A program made the position numbers and the translations under genes. DNA of 63,797 nucleotides, filler included, from Bacteroidales bacterium (lineage in GTDB: Bacteria; Bacteroidota; Bacteroidia; Bacteroidales; CAIWKO01), in assembly GCA_035389045.1 (NCBI GenBank). It is 3 parts of 3 records of this genome, joined end to end, with 100 filler letters (N's around TTAATTAATTAA, not from the genome) between each part and the next. Parts side by side here need not be neighbours in the genome. Positions count along the whole stretch, not along the records: positions 28,940 to 57,145 come from DAOORA010000061.1; 2 more parts are not named here. The stretch is one strand, 5' to 3'. Below are positions 4,802-57,245 of this stretch, piece by piece. Within the stretch, counting starts at the first letter, position 1, and every line of letters begins with the position of its first letter. The notes beneath the pieces were generated by a model, which saw nothing but the letters and a program-made list of their open reading frames with translations, did not search any database and was not told the origin of the DNA.

Positions 4802-4862
4802 TTTTTTATTATTTGGATTATAATTTTGATTTGATGATTAAAGGATTTGAATAATTTAAGAC

Positions 4863-5212
4863 TTTTCATAAAATCAAAAAAGTATTACCGGACATTTTTG
4901 ATTCAAAATCTGTCTTGAGAAAATTTTTTCATTACTCCCTGTCAGGTTCCAAAAATATGGTATAAGACATATCAGGTGTACATTTATTAGAACAGAAAAA
5001 TAACCTTTTCAGAAGTTGAAAAAATTTTTATAAATATATATATAAATTTACCGGTGTGCAATAAAAAATATTGCTCACCTTTTATTATACCTGTAATTAT
5101 TAGAAATTCAGAATATTATTTTTTAACAATCAAACAAATATATGTATTACAATATTTTATACTTACAGAATGATGCGACAGGCTTGCGCTTATCCAAATT
5201 GACCTTCCGATT
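4863..5212 (-). promoter_or_regulatory. Upstream non-coding region of fibre gene A, homologous to 9181-9526
   Basis: Colinear shared blocks, e.g. TTACCGGA, GATTCAAAA, TTGAGAAAA, TATAAGACAYATCAGGTGT, TATAAATATATA, AGAAATTCAG, CAGGCT, CTTCCG. Confidence 0.7.
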
Positions 5213-5237
5213 CTAAAAGACTATTTTTACGAGAGCA

Positions 5238-8200
5238 TCATTTATTTATGAGCTGTTTTAAATCATTGATCTGTTTTTGCAAGGCTTCGATTTTCTGGTC
5301 CTGTCCTGCAATGGTTTTCTGTTGTGATTCTAACATTATTTGCTGTTCCTGTATGGCTTTGGTGAGCACAGGCACTAATTTTTCGTACGACATGCTCCAG
5401 AGTGTGTTTTCTTCGTTTTGGGGTTTGCTTACAGCTTCGGGTATCACATGAAAGACATCCTGCGCAATAAATCCAATATTCGCCGTGCCGGTATTTTCGA
5501 TTAGGAGTTTACCGTCTTTGACAGAAGAATTATGTTGTAAATAATTTACCGGTTTTAATTTCATCACATCCCTGATCCCGTAGCTGATCGGATTTATATC
5601 AGATTTTATCCTTTTATCCGAGTAAGTGGCCCAGGCGTAAGCCCTGCCCGATCCTGTGCCAATGGTAGCGCTGTTGGGCAGTTCAACGGCATAGGTCGGG
5701 TTGGTCACAGACTGTATCCCGATGCGTCCGTTCTTGAAAATGACGTTTCCTGCCTGATAGATATAGATGTTTTCTGATGTGTTATCAAATCCAATGGCGC
5801 CTTTGTATGTTGCATCCTGGAAAAAGTTTACTTCGGCCAGGTTACTGTCAGCCGCGGCTATCCTTATTTTTGCTGCCCCGCCGGCATTTCTCACATGCAG
5901 CATTTCCCCGGGGGTATCTGAACCAATTCCAACTTTGCCGTTTTTCATCACGGTCAAGGCGTTGCTGAGAGCCGAGGAACTTGTACCATTACCGATAACG
6001 AAAAGACGGTCGTTGGTATACCAGGTGGCAGAACTACCCGGAGTGTAATAAGTATTATATCTTCCTACCACCATTTCGTATGCCGAGGGGGTTGTCGTGT
6101 AACTTCCCATAGCAATAGAGTAATTACCGGTGGTTGCCGTATTGTTACCTATTGCCATAGCTGCAGAGCCTGATGCCGTACATTGATAACCCAGGGCTGT
6201 GGCATACTGGCCATAAGTCGTTGTTTCATAGCCAATAGCGTTGCCTGCAAAATTATTGGCATATGCCATCCATCCGAGAGCGATGGAATTGCTTCCCAAA
6301 GCTGTCGGATTATATCCGGCAGCAAAGGAGTAAGGTCCATGAGCATTTGCTGCGTAGCCCAAAGCAGTAGCATTGGTTCCTGAAGCCAACGAACTGCTGC
6401 CAAATGCGGTAGCACCTTCACCCAGGGCTTTTGCTAAATCACCCATGGCGACAGATTTGTTTCCTGAAGCTAAACAGTTATAACCCGATGCTGTTGAATA
6501 ATTTCCTTTTGCCCTGGTATTAAAACCAAAACCAGCCGAAAAATATCCTGTGCTATCCGTATCCCAATATGCCCCATTAACAGATCCGGCTCTGAAAGCC
6601 GCTTTATCCGGGTACCACATCATGCGTGTTCCTGCCCCTGATGCAGGCGCTGCACCCGGACTTGATGATTTATAGGAACCGGCAAAAAGCACATTGCCTC
6701 CGCCGGTAGCAGTGCCCGATGTATGTAGCAAGGCAGCAGGCACATCTGTACCAATGCCGGTGTTCCCGTTTTTTAATATAGTCACCGCATTGCTTCTTAC
6801 TGATGTAGATGTTCCGTTCCCGATGACAAAAAGACGGTCGGTGGTCCCCCAGCCATTTGGATTTCCGGGTGTATATATGGTATTAAAAGATCCAACGGCA
6901 GTCTCTGTATAAGAATAGGCACCTGTTCCGATTCCCATTGCTGTTGAACAATATTCTGAAGCAGTTGTATAATATCCCATCGCCGTGGAAACAGGCCCTG
7001 AAGCAGTTGACAAGTATCCCATAGCTGTTGAATAATTTGCTGAAGCAGTTGACGCGTTTCCCATCGCTGTTGAATAATCTCCTGAAGCAGTTGTGTTATT
7101 ACCCATTGCTGTGGAAGAAGAACCAACAGCATTTGTGCCGTAACCCATCGCAGTGGAATAACTCCCTGATGCCGAAGTTTTGTCACCCATTGCAGTAGCA
7201 ACAATGCCTTTTGCTTTTGTATTGAATCCGAAAGCTACTGAAAAATTTCCTATGCTGTCTGTGTCCCAGCAATTGGGATCGGAAGCGGCAATATGTCCCG
7301 CCCTGAATGCTCCTTTATCGGGATACCACATCATGCGCGTACCTATACCTGATGCCGGCGCTGTACCCGGGCCGGAGGACTTATAAGATCCGACAAATAA
7401 AACATTCCCTGCTCCGGTGCCGGTACCGTATGTTTGTAACAATGCTGTGGGTGTGGACGTTCCTATCCCGACATTTCCAGTGTTTTTGTTGTATATATTT
7501 TGCCCGGCAGTATCCCAAAGCGAAGAAGTTATTAATTGACCCTTAGTAATAAATTCATTATTACTGATTGCATCAGAACCGGAGACAGTACCTGAAAATG
7601 ATCCATTACCCGCCACCTGAAGCTTGGAAGTTGGGGTGGATGTGCCGATGCCTGTGTTTCCATTTTTTAATATGGTTAGCGCATTGCTTCTGATTGTGGA
7701 ACCGGTACCATTTCCCACAACGAAAAGCCGGTCGCTCGATATCCATGCCGTTGTACTTGCAGGTGTATAGGTGGTATTACAACTTCCGACAACAAATTCG
7801 CAAAAAGACGGAGCAATGGAAAAAGTTCCCATGGCTGTAGAATTATTGCCGGAAGCTTCTGAACTATAACCTGTAGCAGTGGAAGCATACGCTGAAGCAT
7901 TGGAATAAAAACCATATGCAGTAGAATTGACTCCCGAGGCATTGCTAAAGGAACCTAACGCTATTGAATTGGGCCCTGAAGCCGTTACCAAATAACCCAT
8001 GGCAACAGAATGAGCGCCTGAAGCATTTGATTCGTTGCCTGTTGCTGTGGATGCACTTCCTGTAGCATTTGTTTTGTATCCGGCAGCAATAGAATAGTCG
8101 CCGGCGGCAATTGTCTGATAACCTAAAGCTGTGGATGCTCCTCCTGATGCCGTATCGTATAACCCGAGAGCCACGGCAGCGCTTCCGGAAGCATAAGGAC

Positions 8201-9053
8201 CGACGCCCATGGCAACAGAATAATTATGAGAAGCTATTGAATTATATCCTGCCGCAAATGACCCCATCCCTTTGGCTTTCGTATCATAACCACTGGCAAA
8301 AGAGAAAGCTCCGATACTGTCGGTATTCCAGTGTGCCCCTGTTACATATCCTTCGCGGAAAGCTGCTTTATCAGGATACCACATCATACGCGTACCGGTA
8401 CCTTCAACGGGTGCAGGTCCGGGAGTTAACATCTTATAATCACCTTCAAATAATACATTGCCTCCACCTGCACCCATGCCATATGTGTGAAGCATTGCAG
8501 CCGGGCTGGCTGTACCAACCCCCATACGGGTACCGTTATTATATAAAAAACTATTGGCTGTCCATGCCGTTCCATCATGCCTGAGAGTCTGGCCGGACGA
8601 TCCTGCCATGCCAAAGGTATTGGCTTTCTCAGCGTTAAGTGCATAAGGAACGCTCACTAGCTGGGTGACGCCAAAGGTGCTCCAGGTGTAACCTCCGGTT
8701 GGCCCGTTGGCATCGAGTTGTATTTCCAGGTATTTTTCGCCTGAAGCCCAGTTGATGGAGGAGAAACTGGTGCTCGGGTTGCTTCCGCCGCCGATCTTCA
8801 GGCTGACAAGCCCGTACTGGTTGGTTACCGCGTCATGTGTTTCATGGTACACGTCAGTGCCGGTGGATGATCCGTCACGTATGATCATCATAAGACTTAC
8901 GCTCTGGCTGGCTAAAATATTTCCTGATGAGTCACGCACCACTGCCTGATAATTTATTTTTTGAGGAGCCTGTGCGAAAGACGATGTGATAATTAGCTGA
9001 TTAGCTAATGTGATCATTAAAATTGCAACAAATTTTTGAATGTGTGTTTTCAT
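5238..9053 (-). CDS. Fibre gene B: secreted YadA-head repeat protein with Peptidase_S74 chaperone (three connector/head modules)
   Basis: Same architecture as gene A; three RMMWYPDKxAFRxG modules; SDKRIK motif; GFIAQD; coiled-coil end. Confidence 0.9.
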   Translation of the reverse strand: MKTHIQKFVAILMITLANQLIITSSFAQAPQKINYQAVVRDSSGNILASQSVSLMMIIRDGSSTGTDVYHETHDAVTNQYGLVSLKIGGGSNPSTSFSSINWASGEKYLEIQLDANGPTGGYTWSTFGVTQLVSVPYALNAEKANTFGMAGSSGQTLRHDGTAWTANSFLYNNGTRMGVGTASPAAMLHTYGMGAGGGNVLFEGDYKMLTPGPAPVEGTGTRMMWYPDKAAFREGYVTGAHWNTDSIGAFSFASGYDTKAKGMGSFAAGYNSIASHNYSVAMGVGPYASGSAAVALGLYDTASGGASTALGYQTIAAGDYSIAAGYKTNATGSASTATGNESNASGAHSVAMGYLVTASGPNSIALGSFSNASGVNSTAYGFYSNASAYASTATGYSSEASGNNSTAMGTFSIAPSFCEFVVGSCNTTYTPASTTAWISSDRLFVVGNGTGSTIRSNALTILKNGNTGIGTSTPTSKLQVAGNGSFSGTVSGSDAISNNEFITKGQLITSSLWDTAGQNIYNKNTGNVGIGTSTPTALLQTYGTGTGAGNVLFVGSYKSSGPGTAPASGIGTRMMWYPDKGAFRAGHIAASDPNCWDTDSIGNFSVAFGFNTKAKGIVATAMGDKTSASGSYSTAMGYGTNAVGSSSTAMGNNTTASGDYSTAMGNASTASANYSTAMGYLSTASGPVSTAMGYYTTASEYCSTAMGIGTGAYSYTETAVGSFNTIYTPGNPNGWGTTDRLFVIGNGTSTSVRSNAVTILKNGNTGIGTDVPAALLHTSGTATGGGNVLFAGSYKSSSPGAAPASGAGTRMMWYPDKAAFRAGSVNGAYWDTDSTGYFSAGFGFNTRAKGNYSTASGYNCLASGNKSVAMGDLAKALGEGATAFGSSSLASGTNATALGYAANAHGPYSFAAGYNPTALGSNSIALGWMAYANNFAGNAIGYETTTYGQYATALGYQCTASGSAAMAIGNNTATTGNYSIAMGSYTTTPSAYEMVVGRYNTYYTPGSSATWYTNDRLFVIGNGTSSSALSNALTVMKNGKVGIGSDTPGEMLHVRNAGGAAKIRIAAADSNLAEVNFFQDATYKGAIGFDNTSENIYIYQAGNVIFKNGRIGIQSVTNPTYAVELPNSATIGTGSGRAYAWATYSDKRIKSDINPISYGIRDVMKLKPVNYLQHNSSVKDGKLLIENTGTANIGFIAQDVFHVIPEAVSKPQNEENTLWSMSYEKLVPVLTKAIQEQQIMLESQQKTIAGQDQKIEALQKQINDLKQLINK

Positions 9054-9180
9054 TTTCTTATCATTTGGTTTGTAATTTTGCTTTTAAATGAGTTCCTCAT
9101 TTTGTTTCAATTCATTCGGAATATTTGCTGATTCGCTGATGTGATCAAGTGACAAATAAAGGATGAAAGTAATTGATGTT

Positions 9181-9526
9181 TTTTCATAAATTTACAAAAA
9201 ACTTACCGGATATCATGATTCAAAACTATATTGAGAAAAATTTTTCTATACTGCCTGCCGGGTTACAATAATATAGTATAAGACACATCAGGTGTGCAAT
9301 TATTAATACAGGAAAATACCTTTTCCAGACAGTGAAAAAATTGTATAAATATATATAAAAAGTTTCTGGTTTACAAAAAAAAAGAATCCTGACTTTTTAT
9401 AATACTCGTAATTTTAAGAAATTCAGTATATTATATTGAATGAATATAATAAATATAAATAATATGATATTTTGCTCTTGCAAAATGGTGGGGCAGGCTC
9501 GTGTTTACCCAAACCTATCTTCCGTT
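9181..9526 (-). promoter_or_regulatory. Upstream non-coding region of fibre gene B, homologous to 4863-5212
   Basis: Colinear alignment by eye with the gene A upstream region over ~350 bp. Confidence 0.7.
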
Positions 9527-9565
9527 TACTTCATGTTGAATTACCTGACTTCTTTAACGAATTCA

Positions 9566-12500
9566 TCATTTATTAATAAGTTCTTTTAAATCATTGATCT
9601 GTTTTTGTAATGCTTCAATTTTATGGTCCTGGCCAGCAATGATTTTCTGTTGTTCCTGTATGGCTTTGACAAGTACCGGTGTTAATTTTTCGTAGCTCAT
9701 GCTCCAGAGTGTGTTTTCATCATTTTCCGGTTTGATGACTATTTCAGGAATTATTTTATAAATGTCTTGTGCGATAAAGCCGATATTGCTGACACCGGCA
9801 TTATCTATTACAATTTTACCGTTCTCCACCGTTGAGTTGTGTTGCAGGTAGCTTACAGGTTTTAGTTTCAGTACCGCATCAATACCGTAATTAATTTCTT
9901 TAACATCGCTTTTTAACCTTTTATCTGAATAGGTGGCCCAGGCGTAAGCCCTGGCCGATCCTGTGCCAATGGATCCGCTGTTGGGAAGTTCAATGGCATA
10001 AGTTGGGTTTGTTACTGATTGTATCCCGATGCGTCCGTTCTTGAAAATGATATTACCGTTTTGATAAATATAGATATAATCATCGTTGTTATTAGATCCA
10101 ATAGCTCCCTTATAATTGATACCGCCATAAAAACTTACCTCTGACAGATATGATGCATTTGCTGATACCCTAATTCGTGATGCCCCGTTTGTATTGTTTA
10201 CATGCAGGAGTTCTAATGGCGCTGAGGTATTAATACCCACATTGCCGTTTTTCATTACCGTCATTGCATTGTTTTCGTTCCCGACTCCGATTCCATTGCC
10301 GATCACAAAAAGGCGGTCGTTGATATTCCAGCTGGTTGCACTTGAAGGATTATAAAGTGTGTTACAGGCCCCGATAACAGTTTCACAGTAAGACGATGCT
10401 CCTGTATAATATCCCATAGCAGTAGATGCTTTTCCATAGGCAACCGTATTATCACCCATGGCCATGGATGCATCTCCGGAGGCGGATGTATTACTTCCCA
10501 TGGCTATGGAAGAATTTCCTGAAGCGGTTGAATAATATCCCATTGCTGTAGAATGAGTTCCTGAGGCGGTTGAATAATATCCCATTGCAGTAGAATAAGT
10601 TCCTGAAGCGGTTGAAATGTATCCAAAGGCGCTAGAACCACTGCCCAGGGCTTTTGTTAAATAACCCATGGCAACAGAGTGGCTTCCTGAAGCCGTACAC
10701 CATTGGCCCGAGGCAGTTGAATAATTTCCTTTAGCCCTGTTATTGGAACCAAAACCAACCGAAAAATATCCTGTACTATCAGTATCCCAATATGCCTCAG
10801 CAACATATCCTGCTCTGAAAGCGGCTTTATCAGGATACCACATCATGCGTGTACCTGCCCCTGATGCCGGTGCTGCACCCGGATTTGAAGATTTATAAGA
10901 ACCAACAAATAATACATTGCCACCGCCGGTTCCTATACCGAATGTTTGCAACAACGCTGTGGGTATAGAGGTTCCTATCCCAATACTAGTTCCATTATTA
11001 TAAAGCAAACTGCTGGCGAGCCAGGTACTGCCATCATGTCTGAGGGTCTGTCCTGTAATACCTGAAGGCATATAAGTGCCTGGGTTTTGCCAGGTGGCAT
11101 ATCCAATACCATCAGAGGTGAGAATCTTACCGGAGCCGGGTGTTCCGGCACCCTGAAAACGAACAGTACCCGTGGTATGCAATTGTGCAGAGGGTGTTGA
11201 TGTGCCAACGCCAGTGTTTCCGTTTTTAAGTACAGTTATGGCATCGCTTCTGGAATTCGTATCAGCGCCGTTTCCGATTACAAAAAGACGGTCTCCTGCG
11301 TACCAGGAACTTATGCCTGAAGGCGTGTAAACAGTATTACAACTTCCCAACCTGGACAAGCCAGAACCCAACAGGTTTTTGAATTTGAACAAAAATATTT
11401 CATTCTGTAATACCTGTTAACAATGAGATACAGAAAATCGTCAAAAATATTTTGCCAAAAAATACACAATTATTAAAGATAAGATACTAAAGCGATTTCG
11501 TTGTATGAAGCAGCATTGACATACTTTCCTATCGCTGCCGAATACGCACTTGTTGCTTTAGAATAGTATCCTAAGGCAATAGAAGACAATCCGGATGCAG
11601 TTGTGCCATTACCTAAAGATATGGAATGATCCCCTGAAGCAGTGGGTTGATAACCTAATGCAACTGATGCCTGTCCTGAAGCTTGTGAAAAATAACCTCC
11701 TGCAAAGGACCGCATACCCGAAGCAATTGTTGCATATCCATAAGCAAAGGATATATCTCCCGCAGCAGCTGCCCCATATCCGATGGCGGAGGAATACATT
11801 CCTGACGCATTCGTACTGTAGCCTAAAGCGGCGGAATACGTTCCTGATGCTCTTGTATTATAACCAAAAGCTACAGAATAACCGCCAACACTTGAGGTAT
11901 TCCAAACGTTATTATCCACAGTACCTGCCCTGAAAGCCGCTTTATCGGGATACCACATCATGCGGGTACCAGCGCCTTCCACTGGTGCAGCGCCTGGCGA
12001 TGATGCTTTATATTGACCGGTAAACACTACATTGCCTTCACCCGTACCGGCGCCGCTCGTATGGAGTAATGCAGCCGGAGTGGTGGTGCCTATGCCGATA
12101 CTGCTTCCATTATTATACAAAAAACTATTGGCTGTCCATGCCGTTCCATCATTCCTAAGGGTTTGCCCGGATAATCCTGCCATACCAATGACATTAGCTT
12201 TCTCGGCGTTCAGCGCATAGGGAACGCTCACCAGCTGGGTGACGCCAAAGATACTCCAGGTATATCCTCCCGATGGCCCGTCGGCATCGAGTTGTATTTC
12301 CAGGTATTTTTCGCCTGAAGTCCAGTTGATGGATGAGAAACTAGTGCTCGGGTTGTTTCCGCCACCGATTTTCAGACTCACAAGCCCGTACTGGTTGGTT
12401 AGCGCGTCATGGGTTTCATGGTACACGTCAGGGCCGGCAGATGATCCGTCACGTATGATCATCATAAGACTTACGCTCTGGCTGGCTAAAATATTTCCTG

Positions 12501-12603
12501 ATGAGTCACGCACCACTGCCTGATAACTGATTTTTTGAGGAGCTTGTGCAAGTACAATTGCTGAAAGCAAAGTATACAATGTGAAAAGTAAGTGTTTTTT
12601 CAT
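9566..12603 (-). pseudogene. Fibre gene C, interrupted by a 140-bp insertion (965 aa if restored)
   Basis: ORF 11473-12603 (signal peptide, N-domain, head repeats) and ORF 9566-11392 (head repeats, SDKRLK S74 domain) join as ...SYNEIAL-GSCNTVYTP..., matching FCEFVVGSCNTTYTP in gene B. 3038-140=2898 nt=966 codons. Confidence 0.9.
11347..11486 (-). mobile_element. 140-bp non-autonomous insertion element with a subterminal hairpin
   Basis: Minus strand: GCT TTA G|TATCTTATC...GGTTCTGGCTTGTCCAGGTTGG|GA AGT TGT. AT-rich, no terminal inverted repeats, imperfect TTAG/TTGG 4-bp repeat at the junctions, CTGG-CTTGT-CCAG hairpin near the end. Confidence 0.8.
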
Positions 12604-12994
12604 AAAAAAAATTTTAAATTGAGATCATTCCAAAAATCAAAATTGAGAATATCAGCTTTGCTTATTCAAAAAAACGAGCTGATTTAGTGCGAATACATCT
12701 TGGATTCAGCGCAAAAAAAACAGTTGCAATTCAATTAATAAAATCGGCTTTTTGGAGTGGACTCAGCATTTTTTATAAAAATATAAAAAAAACAGTAGGC
12801 CATAAAGATTTCCGCAAAAAAATTATCAACGCTTTAGAAATTTATCCAAATATTAAAACACAATTCTTTTCAGTGAAATCTTGTATGCGTGTTTACGGAT
12901 TTATTAAATTAGTATAAATATAAAATATATGATTTACATAAAATCATTTACCAGCCTGTTATAAGAGTTATCAGTAATATCAGGTGTTTTAAGG

Positions 12995-15490
12995 TTATTT
13001 ACTGGTTACCTCGTTTTTCGGGTTTGCATCACCGGTTTCTTTAGAGGCATTTATGGTTTTAAGTTTTTCAAGTTCAGATTTAAGACTAATAATTTCAGTT
13101 ATCAGTGATTCAATAATTTCCTGTTGTTTTATATTATCGCGTGCGAGTTGCTGGACACCTGCCAGTGCTATGCCATCAGGATCAAGGGAATTGATGTGTT
13201 TATTATCCTCTCCTAATCCGAAAGCCGCAAAGAAATCCTGTGCCATGGGGCCGACATGCTCTATACCCGGGTCCTGTGCCTTATAACTCCATCGACTTAT
13301 AGGCACCTGCATAAGTTTAGCAAGGATGTCGCTTCCATCAACAGGGCGGATATTATGTTTAAGCGTGCTGTCGGATACTGCCGACCAGGAACTGCCTCCG
13401 GCAGCAAGCAAAACGCCGGCTGTCAGGCCTCCATTGGTAAATACTCTCATGCCTCCGGTAGCTCGTATTGTGAACTGATTATTGGCTGATGATGCTATAT
13501 TGGCATTGTATGAATCACCGAACACTGTGGAACCCATATGCCGGGCTTTGGCTCTGTAACCTGCTGCAAAGCTGTAGCTGCCCGCTGCAACATTCAGATA
13601 TCCGCCGGGGATGGTTGAATATGCTCCGCCTGTGGAATCTGTGTCTCCACCTCCGATAACGGATTCATACCCGTGAGCTATGTTGCCGTAACCACCCCCA
13701 ATCACAGCATAACTGGCAGTTGTGGTAATCGTGTTGTAATAACCACCGCCAATAAATCCGCGGGAACCCATAGAGTTGTTTTTACGGCCACCGCCTACGA
13801 AAGCAGCAGAGCCACTTGCCGTATTTTCATCACCCCCGCCCACGACAGACATATCGCCGCTTGCATTGCTGTGATAACCGCCGCTGGCAGTTGCATAGCT
13901 ATTGGTTGCCTTGTTATAATAACCGCCACCGACAGTGGCTCCCAAACCGCTTGCGCTGTTATAATAACCCCCGCTTAGAGTTGAATAGGTGTTGCTTGAT
14001 CTGTTATAAGCGCCACCACCAATAACTGAATATTGTCCGGAAGCCACATGAATAGCAGAATCTCTTATTGTTTGCAGATCAATGGCTCCTTTCCCCCTTA
14101 CATTACCGGCCACGATGCCATTTCCGAAACCTGTTGTCTGGATTTCCCCTTTTGATTTGATCATCAAGCCACTGTCTCCAACCTGCAAAAGAGCGCCTGG
14201 TGTTGTGGTTCTGATACCGACCTTGCGTGAATAGATGATACATGAATTAGACTGCGTTATATTCAAAGGATTTTTTGAGATTCCCAGAGCAAAAGAACTA
14301 TCTGCTGCGTCAGTGAGTCGCATATTACTTCCTCCTGCCCAGGAAAAATCTCCTGCTGCAGTATTTTGAGTTCCACCGGTAACCGTTGCATAAATACCGC
14401 TGGCGTTATTAGCGTAGCCTCCGCTGATAGTTGCCCATGAAGTATCAGCAGTATTATTATCACCACCGCCAATAGCAGATTCATAACCGCTTGCTTGGTT
14501 AAAATATCCGCCTGCAACGGTTGAATAGCTATTGGATGCATGGTTGGAATAACCTCCTCCTACAGTTCCGCGAAAACCGCTTGCCACATTATAGCGTCCG
14601 CCACTGACAGTAGCCGCCGCTCCGCTTGCAGTATTATTATCACCTCCTCCGATGCATGCAATGGTGCCACTTGCCTGATTATAATATCCTCCGCTTATGG
14701 TGGCATAACTGTTATTTGCTGTGTTGTTCATGCCTCCGCTGATGGTTGCATAGAGACTGCTGGCTTTGTTTGAATAACCTCCTCCGAGAACAGCGTACTG
14801 ACCCGAAGCTATCATTGTTGCCGAATCCCTTCTTGTTTGAAGATCAATAGCACCAATGCCTCTGGCGTTGCCAGCCACGGTACCGTTACCTACGCCAATG
14901 GTCTGTATTTCACCTTTTGATCTGATAACCAGGCCGCTGTCACCCACATGTAAAAGAGCAGAAGGGGTGGATGTTCCTATCCCGACGTTTTTGCCATTAT
15001 TAAGCAGATTGCTATTGGCAATCCATGATGTTCCGTCATGACGGATGGTCTGCCCTGAAGTGCCTGTCAAACCCAGACCATTTGTTTTTTCGGCATAGAG
15101 TGCATACGGTACGCTTAGTAACTGTGTAGTGCCAAAATAGGTCCAGGTATAGCCTCCTGTAGGTCCGTTGGCATCAAACAGTATCTCGAGATATTTATCT
15201 CCTGAACTCCAATTGATAGAAGAGAAACTTGTACTTGGGTTAACCCCGTTGCCTATCTGCAAAATGACCAGTCCATATTGATTTGTTGTAGCATCATGGG
15301 TTTCGTGATAAAGATCAGTGCCTCCCGGTAACCCCTCCCTGATAGTTAAAAAGAAACTCACTGAATGGTTTATTATTATATTCCCGGACGAATCGCGTAC
15401 CACGGACTGATAGTTGATCTTTTGAGGGCTTTGTGCAAGTACAATTGCCGAAAGCAAAGTATACAATGTGAAAAGTAAGTGTTTTTTCAT
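12995..15490 (-). CDS. Fibre gene D: secreted fibre-like protein with 15-aa GGG-type repeats and a divergent Peptidase_S74 domain
   Basis: Signal peptide identical to gene C; N-domain ...SVPYALYA; repeats ASGxxATVGGGYYNx; SDSTLKHNI...HVGPMAQDF; coiled coil. Confidence 0.88.
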   Translation of the reverse strand: MKKHLLFTLYTLLSAIVLAQSPQKINYQSVVRDSSGNIIINHSVSFFLTIREGLPGGTDLYHETHDATTNQYGLVILQIGNGVNPSTSFSSINWSSGDKYLEILFDANGPTGGYTWTYFGTTQLLSVPYALYAEKTNGLGLTGTSGQTIRHDGTSWIANSNLLNNGKNVGIGTSTPSALLHVGDSGLVIRSKGEIQTIGVGNGTVAGNARGIGAIDLQTRRDSATMIASGQYAVLGGGYSNKASSLYATISGGMNNTANNSYATISGGYYNQASGTIACIGGGDNNTASGAAATVSGGRYNVASGFRGTVGGGYSNHASNSYSTVAGGYFNQASGYESAIGGGDNNTADTSWATISGGYANNASGIYATVTGGTQNTAAGDFSWAGGSNMRLTDAADSSFALGISKNPLNITQSNSCIIYSRKVGIRTTTPGALLQVGDSGLMIKSKGEIQTTGFGNGIVAGNVRGKGAIDLQTIRDSAIHVASGQYSVIGGGAYNRSSNTYSTLSGGYYNSASGLGATVGGGYYNKATNSYATASGGYHSNASGDMSVVGGGDENTASGSAAFVGGGRKNNSMGSRGFIGGGYYNTITTTASYAVIGGGYGNIAHGYESVIGGGDTDSTGGAYSTIPGGYLNVAAGSYSFAAGYRAKARHMGSTVFGDSYNANIASSANNQFTIRATGGMRVFTNGGLTAGVLLAAGGSSWSAVSDSTLKHNIRPVDGSDILAKLMQVPISRWSYKAQDPGIEHVGPMAQDFFAAFGLGEDNKHINSLDPDGIALAGVQQLARDNIKQQEIIESLITEIISLKSELEKLKTINASKETGDANPKNEVTSK

Positions 15491-16001: not shown

Positions 16002-16418
16002 ATGCCACGACCACAAAGAAGCAGAATAGTTTGTACTCCGCCCCAAATGATCGGGTACAAGCCTTACGGACTGAAAAAATGCAAGAAGGAACGCGTTGTC
16101 CTTAATTATGATGAATTTGAGGGTTTTAAATATATGAACTATGACAACCTTCCGCAAGATGAAGCTGCTTTAAGAATGGGGATTTCAAGGCCGACGTTTA
16201 CACGTTTGTATAATAACGCTTTGAAAAAAATCGCCACTGCATTTGTCGAGGGAAAATCAATAGAAATTGAAGGAGGAAATGTGAAATTTGAAAGTGACTG
16301 GCTCCGGTGCATGAAATGCTATAAATTAATAAACGGGAGACAAAATCATGTGCAATGTGCGAACTGCGAACTTTTTGATAAAGAAGAATTAGTTGATCTG
16401 AATAGGACAAAACAATGA
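16002..16418 (+). CDS. DUF134 (UPF0251) predicted DNA-binding protein with C-terminal CxxC...CxxC
   Basis: MPRPQRSR..., YKP, HTH QDEAALRMGISRPTF, EGKSIEIEGG, CMKC/CANC. Confidence 0.9.
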   Translation: MPRPQRSRIVCTPPQMIGYKPYGLKKCKKERVVLNYDEFEGFKYMNYDNLPQDEAALRMGISRPTFTRLYNNALKKIATAFVEGKSIEIEGGNVKFESDWLRCMKCYKLINGRQNHVQCANCELFDKEELVDLNRTKQ

Positions 16419-16747: not shown

Positions 16748-17104
16748 ATGAAAGTAGCCGTACCGACAAGACAGGGACAAGTAGATGACCATTTTGGCCA
16801 TTGCGAATATTACACAATTTTCACCATCGAGAACGGGAAAGTTGAAAAACAAGAAATGATGGAATCACCCATAGGATGCGGGTGCAAATCAAATATAGCG
16901 CCGATGTTAGCACAGATGGGAGTTAAAGTGATGCTCGCAGGGAATATGGGCGAGGGTGCATTATGCATTTTATCTGATAGCGGAATACAGGTTTACAGGG
17001 GCTGTTTTGGAGATGTGGAAAATGTGATCAGCAATTACCTGGAAAATAACATCAAGGACAGCGGTATTGGCTGCACCAACCATGAGGGATGTGATAAACA
17101 CTGA
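16748..17104 (+). CDS. NifB/NifX family protein
   Basis: MKVAVPT...VDDHFGHCEYY...GCGCKS...LAGNMGEGA; C-terminal CTNHEGCDKH. Confidence 0.9.
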   Translation: MKVAVPTRQGQVDDHFGHCEYYTIFTIENGKVEKQEMMESPIGCGCKSNIAPMLAQMGVKVMLAGNMGEGALCILSDSGIQVYRGCFGDVENVISNYLENNIKDSGIGCTNHEGCDKH

Positions 17105-17539: not shown

Positions 17540-18721
17540 ATGGACACAAAGAAATCAGGTTTTAATACCAAATTAATTCATGCCGGAGGATTTGATGACG
17601 AATTTGGCAGTGCAACAGTACCTATTTATCAAACATCAACATTTCGGTTTAAAAATGCACAACACGGGGCCGACTGTTTTTCAGGAAAAAGCAATGGATA
17701 TATTTACACCCGTATCGCCAATCCTACCATTCGCGCACTTGAACAAAATATTGCAGCACTTGAAAATGGTTACGATGGAATAGCAACCAGTTCCGGAATG
17801 GGAGCTATCAGCAGCGTATATATGTCGCTGTTAGGCGCAGGAAGCCATATCGTCAGTTCTGATGCCGTGTATGGGCCTGCCCGAGGTGTGCTTGAACAGG
17901 ATTTTTCAAGATTCGGGGTTGAGTCAAGTTTTGTAAACACTTCCAATATTGAAAATATCAAAGCAGCCATCAAGCCCAATACCAAAGTCCTGTATATTGA
18001 AACACCCGCGAATCCTACCATGGATATTACCGACATTGCCGCGTGTGCAGAAATTGCCGGAGAGCACAAGCTGATTCTGGTCGTGGACAATACCTTTTCA
18101 TCACCCTGTTTACAAAAGCCCCTTGATTTTGGCGCTGATGTCGTATTGCATTCTGTTACCAAATTCATCAACGGTCATGCGGATATCGTTGGTGGCATTA
18201 TCGTTACGAAAGACCCTGAAATTTATAAAAAAATCCGTCATTCAATGGTGTATATGGGTTGTAATATGGACCCGACACAAGCATTTATGGTTTTACGCGG
18301 AGTTAAAACACTGGCATTACGCATAGAACGTTCCCAGGAAAGCGCCATGAAAATTGCAAAATACCTGCAATCTCACCCTAAAATTGCATGGATAAAATAT
18401 CCCGGATTAGTATCACACCCGCAATATGAACTGGCAAAAAAACAAATGAGTGGATTTGGCGGCATGATGAGTTTCGGGGTAAAAGGCGGATATGAAGCCG
18501 GAAGTAAACTGATGGACAATGTTCACCTGGCATTATTAGCCGTTTCATTAGGCGGTGTTGAAACACTGATTCAGCATCCGGCCTCCATGACACATGCAGC
18601 GGTGAGCAAAGAAAACAAACTGGCCGCCGGCATAACTGATGATCTGGTAAGATTTTCTGTAGGAATCGAAGACGTGGAAGATATTATTGCTGACCTGCAA
18701 AATGCATTAGAAAAAGTTTAA
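17540..18721 (+). CDS. megL: PLP-dependent Cys/Met metabolism enzyme, most like methionine gamma-lyase
   Basis: [49 protein letters not shown] (PLP Lys), [19 protein letters not shown]. Confidence 0.8.
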
Positions 18722-28839: not shown

Positions 28840-28939
28840 NNNNNNNNNNNNNNNNNNNNNNNNNNNNNNNNNNNNNNNNNNNNTTAATTAATTAANNNNN
28901 NNNNNNNNNNNNNNNNNNNNNNNNNNNNNNNNNNNNNNN
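28840..28939. other. Artificial contig linker / assembly gap
   Basis: N44-TTAATTAATTAA-N44, stop codons in all six frames. Confidence 0.98.
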
Positions 28940-36672: not shown

Positions 36673-37266
36673 ATGCTAATATATAAGTTCAAGGTTATCA
36701 GTGATGAGATAGATAATTTTTACAGGGAGATTGAAATAAAACCCGGCCATACGTTCAAGGACTTTCATGATATGCTTAATGATTGTATAAAATTCAATCC
36801 GGGTGAAATGGCATCGTTTTATATATGCGATAACAAATGGAACAAACTGCAGGAAATATCGCTTGTCAATCTGGAAGAACAAGACGAAAGCAGCCGGGAT
36901 GCAGATGATAATCCGGAAAACAATGTCAGACCAGTTAAAATGATGTCGGAGGTTAAGCTTAAAGAAAGCATCAATGATCCTAATCAGCGGCTGATATATG
37001 TGTACGATTTTATGAAAATGTACACGTTTTATATCGAATTGTCAAAAATTACAGAAGGTGATGAGAAAATTACGTATCCCCGCTGTCTCAAGTCGGCAGG
37101 CGATATCCAGAAACCCAAAAAAATAATCCCTAAAAATGAAGATATGCCGGAATCTGCCGAAGAATTTGACGAATTAGAAGAGGATTTGTTCAGCGATGAC
37201 GACACAAACTTTAATGAGGATGAATTGAACCCCGGAGATGGATTTGAAGAAAATAAATACATCTGA
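36673..37266 (+). CDS. pRiA4b ORF-3-like (IS1096 passenger TnpR-like) conserved protein with acidic tail
   Basis: FYREIEI...TFKDFH...MASFY...W...YVYDFM..YTFYIEL...YP; D/E-rich C-terminus. Confidence 0.75.
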   Translation: MLIYKFKVISDEIDNFYREIEIKPGHTFKDFHDMLNDCIKFNPGEMASFYICDNKWNKLQEISLVNLEEQDESSRDADDNPENNVRPVKMMSEVKLKESINDPNQRLIYVYDFMKMYTFYIELSKITEGDEKITYPRCLKSAGDIQKPKKIIPKNEDMPESAEEFDELEEDLFSDDDTNFNEDELNPGDGFEENKYI

Positions 37267-39131: not shown

Positions 39132-39827
39132 TTATAAGATCCCGGTCAGTTCATTCAATTGTGAGATTTCATAGGTAAATATTTCCTCATGATTAATATT
39201 TTCATAATTGAAAAACACCTGATCAATCCCGGCATTCATGGATCCCATTAGATCAACCTCAATGTCATCCCCTATCATCAGACATTCATGGGCTGCCGCA
39301 TGAATTTCACGTAATGTGAAATCAAAGAAGTTCCGGTCCGGTTTTTTATAACCTGCTTTTTCAGAGGTGATCACCTGGTCAAAATATTTTTCCAGCCCTG
39401 CCTGTTGTATCTTTCTGAACTGTACTTCTTCAAATCCGTTGGTTACGATGTGCATTGCATATTTGTCACACAGGTATTGCAGCGTTTCATAAGTTCCGGG
39501 AAAAACCTTTGTCTTTGAAGGTAACAGTTGTAAATATTTATCAGAAAATTCTTTAGCCAGAGCCAGGTCATCGATACCGTATTTCAGCAACACCAGGTTA
39601 AACCTTTGGTACATCAGTTCCTCCTTACTGATCGTATTCTGACGGTACTGACCCCACAATTCAAGATTTACCTTCTCATAATCAAGGAAAAAGACATTAA
39701 AATCTCCGATGCCTTTTCGTTGTAGTCCAAAATCATTGTAAAGCTCAAAAATCGTTTCACGGGAATTGTTATCAAAATCCCAGATGGTTTTATCAAGGTC
39801 AAAGAGTAAATGTTTGTATTTTTTCAT
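39132..39827 (-). CDS. yjjG: YjjG-family HAD pyrimidine nucleotidase
   Basis: FDLDKTIWDF, VTNGF, KKP, MIGDDIEVD. Confidence 0.88.
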   Translation of the reverse strand: MKKYKHLLFDLDKTIWDFDNNSRETIFELYNDFGLQRKGIGDFNVFFLDYEKVNLELWGQYRQNTISKEELMYQRFNLVLLKYGIDDLALAKEFSDKYLQLLPSKTKVFPGTYETLQYLCDKYAMHIVTNGFEEVQFRKIQQAGLEKYFDQVITSEKAGYKKPDRNFFDFTLREIHAAAHECLMIGDDIEVDLMGSMNAGIDQVFFNYENINHEEIFTYEISQLNELTGIL

Positions 39828-39947
39828 AAGCGGGCAACAAAAATAATTATTGTTTGTTAAAAAGAATGTGAGAAAAATAATCTGCTGAAAATTTACGTAC
39901 TCTCATTTTCACTATGTTTGCAAAATAATCTTATTAATTTTTTTGTT

Positions 39948-40829
39948 ATGATGATCAAAGGTGCATATACATTATTAATTACTCCGTTCAGACCGGATCT
40001 GACCCTCGACGAAGAAGGACTGAGAATCCTGGTGCAGCGGCAATTAGATTCAGGTATCCAGGGCATTGCGCCACTGGGGGTCACGGGAGAGAACACCCTG
40101 ATGACCGATCAGGAAGTATACCGGGTAATAGAAATTGTTGCAGAAGTGGCCAAAGGGAAAGCCATGATCGCCCCGGACATCTGCAGCACCAGTTTATGGG
40201 AAGCCAAGGAACGGGTACAGCGTTTTATTGACCTGGGCAGTGATTACATATGTGTTTTTACGCCATATTTTGTTTTGCCCAAACAGGAGGGGCTGATAGC
40301 GTTCTATGAGCAACTGGCTGATTTTTCGCGCGTTCCTATATTACTTCACAATGCTCCGGAAAGAACCGGTGTGGATCTTTTACCCGAAACAACAGGGTAT
40401 CTGGCAAAGCACCCGAATATTATCGGTATCAAGGACGGCAACAAAAAACTTGACCATTTGGCCAAAATTCTGCACCTGACCAGAAATGAAGATTTCTGTG
40501 TGTTTACGGGAAAAGATACTACTGCCTATCCCCTGATTTCTTTTGGCGGGGCAGGAACTTTTACCGTGGCCGGAAATGTTATTCCTGAAGTAATGAAAAA
40601 ACTGACAGGGCATGCCTTAGCCGGCGAAATGAACGAAGCAGCAGAGCTGCACTACAGCTATTATGACCTTTTTGAAGCATTCCGTTTCGAGTCCAATCCC
40701 ATGGCCGCCAAAATGGCCCTGAACCTTATGGGGCTGCCTGCAGGAGGTCACCGTTGCCCGCTTACACCGCTCAGCGAAGAAAAAACCAATAAACTGAAAC
40801 TATTAATGCAAAAAAAAGGCTTGCTATGA
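39948..40829 (+). CDS. DapA/NAL-family class I aldolase-like protein with a non-canonical active site
   Basis: Colinear with DHDPS (ITPF, GxTGE, TPY, RTG, IIGIKD, ESNP) but V44/F107/H133. TATGTTTG promoter at 39913-39920 argues against the TTG start at 39918. Confidence 0.85.
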   Translation: MMIKGAYTLLITPFRPDLTLDEEGLRILVQRQLDSGIQGIAPLGVTGENTLMTDQEVYRVIEIVAEVAKGKAMIAPDICSTSLWEAKERVQRFIDLGSDYICVFTPYFVLPKQEGLIAFYEQLADFSRVPILLHNAPERTGVDLLPETTGYLAKHPNIIGIKDGNKKLDHLAKILHLTRNEDFCVFTGKDTTAYPLISFGGAGTFTVAGNVIPEVMKKLTGHALAGEMNEAAELHYSYYDLFEAFRFESNPMAAKMALNLMGLPAGGHRCPLTPLSEEKTNKLKLLMQKKGLL

Positions 40830-41746
40830 ACACAATAAGATTAAGAGGGCCTGCCACCAGCGCCAACGTCGGACCGGGATATGACATTTTTGCAATGGCG
40901 TTGAAAGAGCCTCATGATGAAATAATGCTTGAACTTACCGATGATAATAAGATTACCATTGAAGTGGCCGGTAACCACCAAACCATTGTACCACTGAAAG
41001 TTGAAGATAATACAGCAGGATTGGCTGTGATGGAATTTAAAAAAAGATATCGCCTTGATACCGGTGTCAAAATCACGATCACCAAATGCATGACATCGGG
41101 ATGCGGTTTAGGCACTACAGGAGCTTCGGCGGCTTCGGCCGTTTTCGGGCTGAACAGTTTGCTTGGGATGAATTTATCTTCAAACGAACTAATTGATATT
41201 GCACGCATGGGCGAAGTTGCTTCCGGTGGTTCCCCTCACGCAGACAATGTGGCTGCTGCTATGCTGGGAGGTTTTGTACTGGTTCAGAATTATCACCCCA
41301 TTGATGTCTTAAAACTTGAAATGCCTGAATTTCCTGTTGTGCTGGCCGTCATTCAGAAGAGCCAGCGGACCACTAGGGGTTTCATCACCTATGAAATCGG
41401 GCAGGAAAAATTAAAAGACCAGATGGCACGCTGCGCCAGCGTCATCCATGGTATACTCACCAAAGACCTGGAAGAATTCGGGCGCGCGGTTTCGGTGGAC
41501 CATATTGCAGAACCAGTCCGTTCTGCCGCAATACTGAATTACCATGAAACAAAAAAAGAGATACTGAACGCCGGAGCTTACGGCACCAACGTAAGCGGGG
41601 GCGGTTCGTCGGTTTTTGCTGTTTGTGAAGCATCGTTACAGGATGAGATCGCGGAAATCATGGAAAGAGGATTAAGCCCAAACCCCAATTTCGTAAAAGT
41701 GATAAAAACTACAACCAGTAACACCGGCGTAAGGATTATCGAATGA
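40826..41746 (+). CDS. Homoserine-kinase-like GHMP kinase (divergent)
   Basis: PATSANVGPGYD, GCGLGTTGASA, HADNVAAAMLGG, EPVR, SGGGSS. Confidence 0.85.
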   Translation: MNTIRLRGPATSANVGPGYDIFAMALKEPHDEIMLELTDDNKITIEVAGNHQTIVPLKVEDNTAGLAVMEFKKRYRLDTGVKITITKCMTSGCGLGTTGASAASAVFGLNSLLGMNLSSNELIDIARMGEVASGGSPHADNVAAAMLGGFVLVQNYHPIDVLKLEMPEFPVVLAVIQKSQRTTRGFITYEIGQEKLKDQMARCASVIHGILTKDLEEFGRAVSVDHIAEPVRSAAILNYHETKKEILNAGAYGTNVSGGGSSVFAVCEASLQDEIAEIMERGLSPNPNFVKVIKTTTSNTGVRIIE

Positions 41747-42507
41747 AAATCGACTTCAGCGGCAAGACGGTTCTGATTACAGGCGCCTCACGCGGTATAG
41801 GCAGGGCCACAGCGGTTAAATTTGCCGAATGTGGTGCCAATGTGGTCGTTCATTACAAAGAATATAGCGGCGGCGCACTGAAAACATTATCCTTATTAGC
41901 TGAGGGAAAACATTTGCTGATGAAAGCCGACCTGACAGACCCTGTACAAATAGAAAACCTGGTAACTAAATCCATCAGAAAAACCGGAAGAATAGATGTG
42001 CTGGTCAACAATGCCGGCATATACAAGCAATGCGATATGCGCGGATGTTCCTTTGCCGAATGGCAGAAAAATTTTGATGAAACCTTAAAAACAAATATCT
42101 ACGGCCCTGCCCATCTCTCCTTTCTTATTGGCAAACATATGGCCGGCAAAGGCGGAGGCAAAATAATCAATGTTTCATCCAGAGGGGCATTCAGAGGCGA
42201 GCCCCTGGCGCCAGCTTACGGTGCCAGCAAAGCCGCACTGAATCAGTTCAGCCAGTCGATGGCCTGCCTGATGGCGCCGGAAAATGTGTTTGTTTATGTG
42301 GTAGCACCCGGTTTTGTTGAAACTGACATGTCGAAACATATATTAAAAAGTGAGGCGGGAGTTGATATAAGAAGACAAAGCCCCCTGAACCGTGTGGCCA
42401 GACCAGAAGAGATCGCCAATACCATTCTCCTCCTTGCATCCGACCATACGGAATTCCTGACCGGTGGGATCATAGATATCAATGGTGCATCATATCTGAG
42501 GAGCTGA
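41743..42507 (+). CDS. Short-chain dehydrogenase/reductase
   Basis: TGASRGIG, NNAG, YGASK, APGFVET. Confidence 0.93.
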   Translation: MKIDFSGKTVLITGASRGIGRATAVKFAECGANVVVHYKEYSGGALKTLSLLAEGKHLLMKADLTDPVQIENLVTKSIRKTGRIDVLVNNAGIYKQCDMRGCSFAEWQKNFDETLKTNIYGPAHLSFLIGKHMAGKGGGKIINVSSRGAFRGEPLAPAYGASKAALNQFSQSMACLMAPENVFVYVVAPGFVETDMSKHILKSEAGVDIRRQSPLNRVARPEEIANTILLLASDHTEFLTGGIIDINGASYLRS

Positions 42508-57145: not shown

Positions 57146-57245
57146 NNNNNNNNNNNNNNNNNNNNNNNNNNNNNNNNNNNNNNNNNNNNTTAATTAATTA
57201 ANNNNNNNNNNNNNNNNNNNNNNNNNNNNNNNNNNNNNNNNNNNN
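57146..57245. other. Artificial contig linker / assembly gap
   Basis: N44-TTAATTAATTAA-N44. Confidence 0.98.

Follow-up and report, generated by a model that had tools for sequence, protein, structure and literature searches.

A remodelled DHDPS-fold subfamily paired with homoserine kinase and a possible DapA- and DapB-independent route to tetrahydrodipicolinate

Bacterial synthesis of diaminopimelate (DAP) and lysine is taken to pass universally through DapA and DapB, which are also regarded as targets for antibiotics and herbicides. Dobson and co-workers are said to have found in 2004 that mutants in the catalytic triad of DapA, the dihydrodipicolinate synthase (DHDPS), are severely impaired. 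For the Escherichia coli enzyme, passages of PMC11201819 describe Thr44 and Thr45 as holding the pyruvate carboxylate, Tyr133 as placed over the enamine, Arg138 and Asn248 as holding the carboxylate of an aspartate-semialdehyde analogue, and the main chain of Ile203 and the carbonyl of Gly186 as contacting the C4 oxygen. Here we describe a DHDPS-fold enzyme in which all three triad residues are replaced, encoded in a 63,797-nucleotide stretch of DNA (the window) from a Bacteroidales genome (GCA_035389045.1, called G000 and 96.3% complete). We name the variant enzyme VFH after its Val44, Phe107 and His133, and use G-, C- and L-numbers for genomes, contigs and loci. We tentatively propose that VFH couples pyruvate to O-phosphohomoserine to give tetrahydrodipicolinate (THDP) independently of DapA and DapB, a reading that we hold to be possible rather than probable.

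The VFH gene lies on contig C61 of G000, at positions 39951..40829 (+), and encodes a protein of 292 aa, assigned to the DHDPS fold from its translation, Pfam and NCBIfam matches and an AF2 model. The open reading frame spans 39918..40829(+) and offers ATG codons at 39948 and 39951; the start at 39951 is favoured because homologues are mostly 292 aa long and begin with MxKGAYT. In a phmmer alignment, the protein runs colinear with solved DHDPS structures (residues 3-293, numbered from the 39948 start, match 1dhp 2-292), which bears out the initial annotation, made from the sequence alone, in its claim that numbering from the ATG at 39951 runs parallel to that of DHDPS. The translation contains V44, T45, F107, H133, R138 and K161 and the motifs GVTGE, TPYF, LLHNAPERT, IAPDICS and TGKD; every residue and motif listed in that annotation, with K161, T45 and R138 kept and positions 44, 107 and 133 replaced, was recovered. 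Its expectation that automated pipelines would call the gene dapA also proved correct. VFH matches Pfam PF00701 (TIM-barrel fold) with 210.6 bits and marginally passes the dapA equivalog model TIGR00674 (225.9 bits against a cut-off of 206.15), and its homologues are publicly named 4-hydroxy-tetrahydrodipicolinate synthase.

Conservation of the replaced residues was assessed in VFH together with its 120 best database homologues (65-91% identity), from 794 proteins found at E <= 0.001. V44, F107, H133, K161, R138, T45, C78 and K188 are each present in 121/121 sequences. Among the 150 best representatives of 50%-identity clusters, His133 occurs in only three (P0121, P0123 and the fragment P0122) and Tyr133 in 145; the only full-length relatives with the pattern in this set are P0121 (54% identity) and P0123 (42%), both reading V/L/H, and two fragments carry it as well. 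Beyond these representatives identity falls to <=38%, and 133/150 read [TS]-T-Y-Y-R-K. In 143 canonical DHDPS sequences, Tyr133 is found in 142, Tyr107 in 139, and Thr or Ser at position 44 in 135. A 13-position signature (V44 T45 D/E76 C/V78 [FLM]107 H133 R138 K161 K165 K188 F204 R245 N249) was counted over 80 loci from species-representative genomes, of which 79 hold full-length copies, and is present in 79/79. The hosts of these loci are all metagenome-assembled genomes (MAGs) and belong to Bacteroidales, other Bacteroidota, Cloacimonadota and Armatimonadota, with one labelled Eubacteriales; 176 relatives were found among species-representative genomes, and all homologues found come from uncultured organisms. 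In a quick maximum-likelihood tree of 72 rows, all 24 variant rows fall on one side of a single branch (SH-aLRT 98), with a long stem and short internal branches.

VFH is therefore a conserved, remodelled subfamily and not a product of decay. The loss of the catalytic triad is what a decaying or inactive DapA pseudo-enzyme would show, but the reading frame is intact, the replacements are invariant in both sequence sets across three phyla, the branches inside the variant clade are short, the Schiff-base lysine is retained and the operon is translationally coupled; this conservation excludes the pseudo-enzyme reading, to which we give hardly any credence. The initial annotation had seen a coordinated replacement in an intact frame rather than decay and had called for a check of V/F/H co-conservation, and its view holds in that the substitutions are shared clade-wide instead of being peculiar to one sequence.

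A position-by-position comparison of 120 variant with 143 canonical sequences identified 15 clade-specific positions: A8L, V40A, T44V, G76D, G78C, A92F, Y107F, H118F, Y133H, A163G, G165K, D188K, I204F, F245R and P252A. The AF2 model of VFH (pLDDT 90.9) has DHDPS 6p90_A as its best Foldseek match (TM 0.97, rmsd 1.4 Å), and its TM scores against DHDPS structures range from 0.94 to 0.97. In this model, positions 8, 40, 44, 76, 78, 107, 133, 163, 165, 188 and 204 lie at or just past the C-terminal ends of barrel strands 1-8, the catalytic face, 11 positions in all. R245 is in the loop carrying N249, the equivalent of E. coli Asn248, which is invariant within the variant clade. Residues kept in both the variant and the canonical groups are G43, T45, G46, E47, N134, R138, K161, G187, D189, K254 and R268. 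On balance, three hydroxyls and, with the change of Asp188 to Lys, one acid are lost, and His133, Lys165, Lys188 and Arg245 are gained. E. coli Gly186 and Ile203, in what we take to be the numbering of that enzyme, would correspond to G187 and F204 of VFH, with the one-residue offset deduced from the conserved G-x-D motif, and these two residues flank the new Lys188. The comparison suggests an active site conserved at its pyruvate and amino-acid ends and remodelled around the reacting carbon. Because the substitutions are co-conserved and the catalytic face is remodelled beyond the triad, a changed reaction or a changed second substrate is likely.

The gene that follows VFH, at 40826..41746 (+), encodes a GHMP kinase of 306 aa that we read as a homoserine kinase from its Pfam, NCBIfam and 1FWK matches, and its ATG overlaps the VFH stop codon TGA (ATGA). 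Both GHMP domains (PF00288 and PF08544) match; the protein is above cut-off on the NCBIfam homoserine kinase model NF002288 (270.1 against 194) and 3 bits short on TIGR00191 (165.5 against 168.25). It aligns with the Methanocaldococcus jannaschii homoserine kinase 1FWK at 188 bits and ~45% identity, keeping the HADNVA and EPVR stretches, which presumably bind substrate in homoserine kinase. By these matches the partner looks like a true homoserine kinase.

A search with VFH of 301 genomes of the same order located 34 matches (51-100% identity), spread over 31 genomes; the following match had 36% identity. A kinase orthologue lies directly downstream of VFH in 29 of the 33 loci examined in these 31 genomes; of the four exceptions, two are cut by contig ends, and the other two are second VFH copies, in genomes where the kinase accompanies the first. 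In the set of 80 loci, which overlaps with the 33-locus set in genomes, the kinase follows VFH in 68, and the remaining 12 comprise two loci cut by contig ends, five second copies and five unexplained cases (L109, L140, L144, L154 and L174). Kinase orthologues (59-100% identity) are present in 31/31 VFH genomes and in 2/270 others (G273 and G280), with the next hits at <=40%. The G273 orthologue sits at a contig edge; G280, which has no VFH, encodes in order Hom, a 359-aa open reading frame, the kinase and a Cys/Met pyridoxal-phosphate (PLP) enzyme. The 359-aa frame (L098, G280:C58:3035-4111) is rich in lysine and isoleucine, occupies the VFH slot between hom and the kinase gene, and matched no Pfam or NCBIfam family and no other unassigned neighbour. 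The kinase occurs without threonine synthase in 20/31 host genomes, and its distribution tracks VFH, not thrC.

The initial annotation had also suggested looking for a canonical dapA elsewhere in the genome; none was found in G000, where VFH is the sole PF00701 match. Among the 31 VFH genomes, 18 have no other DHDPS-family hit (hereafter VFH-only; two of them hold two variant copies) and 13 have a further hit with <=36% identity. The 270 genomes without the variant contain a DHDPS-family hit in 260 cases and none in 10. The search for pathway genes covered 44 genomes: all 31 that carry VFH, plus 13 controls lacking it that were hand-picked for high completeness rather than at random, and 'not found' in these MAG searches does not equal absent. 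The dapB model TIGR00036 scored above cut-off in 13/13 controls, in 6/13 genomes with VFH plus a second DHDPS gene and in 0/18 VFH-only genomes, and it matched in 0/5 genomes as well; the DapB_C family PF05173 matched in 1/1 control and 0/4 VFH-only genomes. No divergent dapB was found in VFH-only genomes by TIGR00036 or PF05173, the nearest traces being a dapB-like fragment of 33 aa at a contig edge in G230 and a hit of 33.9 bits, under the cut-off, in G135. In other phyla, G319 and G320 have the variant only and no dapB, G318 has the variant together with canonical DapA and dapB, and G317 has the variant and a paralogue lacking Lys161, with neither canonical DapA nor dapB. In the Cloacimonadota paralogue L180 (G317:C1:78244-79095; PF00701 score 232 bits), Asn stands where the Schiff-base lysine would be and both tyrosine positions read Phe; it may be a non-catalytic or differently acting relative.

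Genes that would use DAP are present as well. The dapF gene was found in 13/13 controls, 27/31 VFH genomes and 16/18 VFH-only genomes, and adjoins GNAT, MltG and GlmM genes in G000 and G018. A 382-aa decarboxylase of G000 has lysA as its best model, at 161.7 against a cut-off of 297.9. The steps leading to aspartate semialdehyde and threonine are patchier: asd was found in 13/13 controls and 13/31 VFH genomes, lysC in 13/13 and 12/31, the two genes nearly always co-occurring and adjacent, and thrC (E <= 1e-30) in 11/13 and 11/31. The Bacteroides-type HomK was rejected as a second homoserine kinase, being found in 0/4 VFH-only genomes. Family searches of G000 found no asd, lysC, HomK, dapB, DapL or Ddh, and no thrC above cut-off; either the organism has multiple auxotrophies or it relies on enzymes that go unrecognised. 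The inference drawn initially, that the enzyme performs a new reaction or accepts a new substrate and does not serve lysine biosynthesis, survives only in its first half, which the co-conserved remodelling supports. Against the second half stand the missing dapA and dapB, the presence of dapF and a LysA-like decarboxylase, the retained carboxylate residues Arg138 and Asn249 and a gene context that is wholly one of aspartate-family metabolism. Taken as a whole, these findings favour a reaction other than that of DapA, whose product nonetheless enters the DAP/lysine branch.

Several further genes accompany VFH and the kinase. A monofunctional homoserine dehydrogenase (Hom) of ~340 aa is present in 28/31 VFH genomes (a representative scores 432 against a cut-off of 373 on NF004912). 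A gene of the aldehyde:ferredoxin oxidoreductase (AOR) family, orthologous to G000 C26:9372-11135, was found in 23/31 VFH genomes, with a fragment in G163, and in 0/13 controls, and adjoins hom in nearly every case. Across the 31 VFH genomes, 17 have AOR only, six Asd only, seven both and one (G230) neither. Judging from the complementary distribution of AOR and LysC/Asd and the position of AOR beside hom, AOR may connect aspartate with its semialdehyde. One in-frame TAA falls within the match in five of the 23 orthologues of AOR (G289, G249, G135, G255 and G201), and could lie near the C-terminus, reflect a sequencing error or be something else.

Two operon layouts recur. In the first, exemplified by L158, L161, L165 and L172, the order is a CGS/MetY-like enzyme (487 aa), Hom, AOR, VFH, kinase, a short-chain dehydrogenase/reductase (SDR) and CGS (399 aa). 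The second, found in Cloacimonadota, Armatimonadota and some Bacteroidota, has no SDR and reads AT-Hom-AOR-VFH-kinase, where AT is a KAT-II/LysN-type aminotransferase (320 bits to 1X0M, 263 bits to LysN 2EGY). Cys/Met PLP genes often flank the VFH cluster, and asd and lysC lie near VFH in G289. In G000 the CGS-like, Hom and AOR genes are located apart from the VFH contig, on C26. There, at C26:6247-11138 (L094), a 487-503-aa Cys/Met PLP enzyme, homoserine dehydrogenase, an open reading frame of the 23S rRNA-intervening-sequence family and AOR stand together, a gene set that is directly upstream of VFH in other genomes; two aldehyde dehydrogenase genes follow it on the opposite strand. The SDR gene of G000 itself (254 aa, 41743..42507, +) overlaps the kinase stop codon with its start (ATGA). 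SDR orthologues occur in 15/31 VFH genomes and 12/18 VFH-only genomes and follow the kinase in 32/80 loci, and the SDR is a facultative member of the cluster. As an obligate substitute for DapB it was rejected, since fewer than half of the VFH genomes have it.

The proposed route would begin with aspartate semialdehyde made by LysC and Asd or, in genomes without both such as G000, possibly by the hom-adjacent AOR. Homoserine dehydrogenase would convert it to homoserine, and the downstream GHMP kinase would supply O-phosphohomoserine, a compound that E. coli makes too. The enamine formed by Lys161 and pyruvate would then attack Cγ of O-phosphohomoserine, rather than an aldehyde, and phosphate would leave; the product, L-2-amino-6-oxopimelate, would be the open form of THDP and already at the oxidation level that follows DapB. 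An aminotransferase, DapF and LysA would complete the path to DAP and lysine. Because the proposed reaction has no carbonyl oxygen to protonate, the Thr/Tyr/Tyr proton relay would be dispensable, and His133, Lys165, Lys188 and Arg245 would hold the leaving phosphate. The reducing step would shift from DapB to Hom with no reductase after coupling; by our reasoning, one NAD(P)H would be spent at Hom instead of at DapB, plus one ATP. The AT-Hom-AOR-VFH-kinase operon, which encodes just the activities that the scheme requires and no further reductase, would then form a complete module from aspartate to LL-DAP.

The identity of the substrates, the C-alkylation and the part played by AOR are our inference from facts that this route would explain jointly: the pyruvate-enamine machinery and carboxylate clamp are kept, the carbonyl-protonating machinery is lost and cations are gained, the kinase is always present and often without threonine synthase, there is no DapB where VFH is the sole homologue, and DapF persists. 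The O-phosphohomoserine route is the simplest single scheme for these facts. Somewhat more doubtful, and offered as conjecture, is the broader picture in which C-alkylation by O-phosphohomoserine is a chemistry new to the aldolase fold that makes DapA and DapB dispensable, AOR, encoded next to hom, may take the place of aspartate kinase and Asd in 17/31 genomes through reduction of aspartate to its semialdehyde, and transfer has carried the operon between anaerobic members of Bacteroidota, Cloacimonadota and Armatimonadota.

A number of observations weigh against this scheme. We know of no class I aldolase fold in which an enamine attacks an unactivated primary alkyl phosphate, and the new cationic residues are placed near the C4 position only by way of strand ends and neighbouring residues in the model. 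The SDR, so frequent after the kinase and overlapping it here, has no role in the scheme. G163 has the operon VFH-kinase-asd-lysC and no Hom was found in it, nor in G217 and G143 (the three genomes are 91-95% complete); aspartate semialdehyde as substrate would better account for the G163 operon and the frequent SDR. G321 (1.0 Mb assembled) combines the variant with dapB and has no canonical DapA. Downstream, dapF was not found in 2/18 VFH-only genomes, lysA is weak or absent in some relatives (G017 and G018 give only ~75-bit hits), Ddh was above cut-off in 0/5 genomes, and DapL was above cut-off in 0/31 VFH genomes against 5/13 controls, a marker that is not diagnostic since it is missing in 8/13 controls too. 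The genomes are, moreover, related and the controls were hand-picked, so that the counts overstate independence; many of the genomes are incomplete MAGs.

The main rival reading is that VFH still condenses pyruvate with aspartate semialdehyde, using His133 as acid/base, that a non-homologous reductase (the SDR or another) replaces DapB, and that Hom, the kinase and the Cys/Met PLP enzymes represent the methionine branch of one aspartate-family operon. This chemistry is well precedented, K161, T45, R138 and N249 are kept, the TIGR00674 score is above cut-off, and VFH is the sole DHDPS homologue in genomes where dapF exists; the G163 operon, the asd and lysC genes near VFH in G289 and the SDR in 32/80 loci are also in its favour, and the flanking Cys/Met PLP enzymes could consume O-phosphohomoserine. 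It would leave unexplained, however, the four new cationic residues and the change of Asp188 to Lys, and it has to accommodate the replacement of all three triad residues in a family where Tyr133 is otherwise near-invariant (142/143). The SDR is missing from one third of VFH-only genomes (present in 12/18) and from the AT-Hom-AOR-VFH-kinase operons, and the kinase in every VFH genome (31/31) is not expected of two separate branches. We regard this reading as unlikely, if still a credible one. A further possibility is that VFH makes the normal aldol adduct, whose 4-hydroxyl the kinase phosphorylates, with elimination of the phosphate and a reductase then leading to THDP. The adduct is, like homoserine, a γ-hydroxy-α-amino acid, some GHMP members such as mevalonate diphosphate decarboxylase couple phosphorylation to elimination, and the VFH-kinase order with overlapping stop and start, the strict co-occurrence of the two genes and the missing dapB all speak for it. 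We nevertheless consider it quite improbable: the kinase shares ~45% identity with a homoserine kinase of established function and is above cut-off on an equivalog model, it accompanies Hom and a PLP enzyme without VFH in G280, Hom itself is present in 28/31 VFH genomes, the new cations are in VFH, suggesting that VFH binds the phosphorylated species, and a reductase would still be needed, of which none is universal.

VFH might alternatively act outside DAP synthesis, in hosts that are DAP/lysine auxotrophs. As an aldolase or lyase, it could take some other aldehyde or a phosphorylated 2-oxo acid as substrate, for instance joining pyruvate and formaldehyde to 4-hydroxy-2-oxobutanoate, to be transaminated to homoserine; or the operon could be catabolic, taking homoserine through aspartate semialdehyde to aspartate by way of Hom and AOR. 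The absence of thrC, lysC and asd from many hosts would suit auxotrophic fermenters, some operons include the KAT-II/LysN-like aminotransferase, the nearly always adjacent Hom and AOR could run oxidatively, and lysA is weak or absent in some relatives. Against such a role, Arg138 and Asn249, the holders of the amino-acid carboxylate, are invariant, dapF is kept in 16/18 VFH-only genomes and within a cell-wall gene cluster, and a genome without any other DHDPS-family hit is far more frequent among those with VFH (18/31) than is a genome without any such hit among the rest (10/270), the loss of DapB being tied to VFH as well; there would also seem to be no obvious source of formaldehyde. We judge a role outside DAP synthesis improbable.

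Full-text literature searches returned nothing on this subfamily, on a reaction of pyruvate with O-phosphohomoserine or on AOR-dependent reduction of aspartate, and VFH is not mentioned in the main-text passages, supplements excluded, of three surveys of amino-acid pathways (PMC9026213, PMC7311316 and the GapMind 2026 preprint). Should VFH indeed couple pyruvate to O-phosphohomoserine, the reaction would be categorically new and the pathway would gain a new branch: a new way of forming a carbon-carbon bond for a very well studied fold, and a natural bypass that alters pathway reconstruction and the prediction of auxotrophy for many uncultured anaerobes. Hundreds of 'dapA' annotations would then be wrong in detail. 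If instead aspartate semialdehyde proves to be the substrate, VFH would be a DHDPS able to function with neither the textbook triad nor DapB, which would still be informative on mechanism. A second, separate lead is the complementary occurrence of AOR and LysC/Asd.

Upstream of the cluster, an intergenic region of ~120 bp (39828..39950), the presumed promoter, separates VFH from a divergent HAD/YjjG-type nucleotidase gene (39132..39827, -). No Rfam element, riboswitches included, was found at gathering score in the window and six loci (146 kb in total). The window consists of three contigs, C60, C61 and one other, separated by runs of N at 28840-28939 and 57146-57245, and genes on either side of these runs are not necessarily neighbours in the genome. 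A methionine-gamma-lyase-like PLP enzyme at 17540-18718(+), near DUF134 and Nitro_FeMo-Co genes (16002-16415 and 16748-17101), is 81% identical to one that stands beside second variant copies in other genomes; such second copies (L052 and L071) lie among MrpORP and damage-control-phosphatase genes, and G000 has this neighbourhood without a second copy of VFH. At 1715-15490(-), each of five consecutive large genes encodes YadA-head or UspA1 repeats, and in four of the five Peptidase_S74 intramolecular-chaperone domains are present too; together they look like an array of adhesin-like or tail-fibre-like proteins. A PRiA4_ORF3-like protein (plasmid pRiA4b ORF-3 family) with an acidic C-terminal tail is encoded at 36673-37263(+), just upstream of miaA.

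Among described systems, N-acetylneuraminate lyase, KdgD, the HpaI-type aldolases and archaeal KD(P)G aldolase share with VFH the fold and lysine Schiff-base chemistry on a 2-oxo acid. Within this superfamily there are enzymes that expel a leaving group from C4 or that bind phosphorylated substrates, and these four families keep an active-site tyrosine. Assignment of VFH to any of them was rejected, as the other NCBIfam models of the superfamily score far under cut-off (TIGR02313 186 against 396.7, NanA 97.5 against 382, Arch_KDGaldase 92.9 against 390). The proposed outcome resembles that of the fungal CndF/Fub7-type PLP enzymes, which join Cγ of an activated homoserine to a carbon nucleophile, through a vinylglycine intermediate, to give a 2-amino-6-oxo acid that cyclises to a piperideine; VFH has no homology to them and a different fold, and would use a lysine-pyruvate enamine instead of PLP. 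The partner kinase shares with ThrB (1FWK) both the N- and C-terminal GHMP domains and the NF002288 pass, and differs in often occurring without threonine synthase and in falling just under the TIGR00191 cut-off. DapA/DHDPS (EC 4.3.3.7; M. jannaschii 2YXG, E. coli 1DHP) is the nearest relative, at ~35% identity, and has in common with VFH the TIM-barrel fold, the Schiff-base Lys161, the pyruvate-binding Thr45, the GxTGE motif, Arg138 and Asn249. In place of Thr44, Tyr107 and Tyr133, VFH has Val, Phe (or Leu or Met) and His; Asp188 and Gly165 are replaced by Lys, Phe245 by Arg and Ile204 by Phe, and the Gly76/Gly78 loop reads Asp/Cys. VFH has no DapB partner where it is the sole homologue and is obligately paired with homoserine kinase. 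It is a member of the DHDPS family by its fold and a marginal model score, and is set apart from DapA by its triad and its pathway partner.

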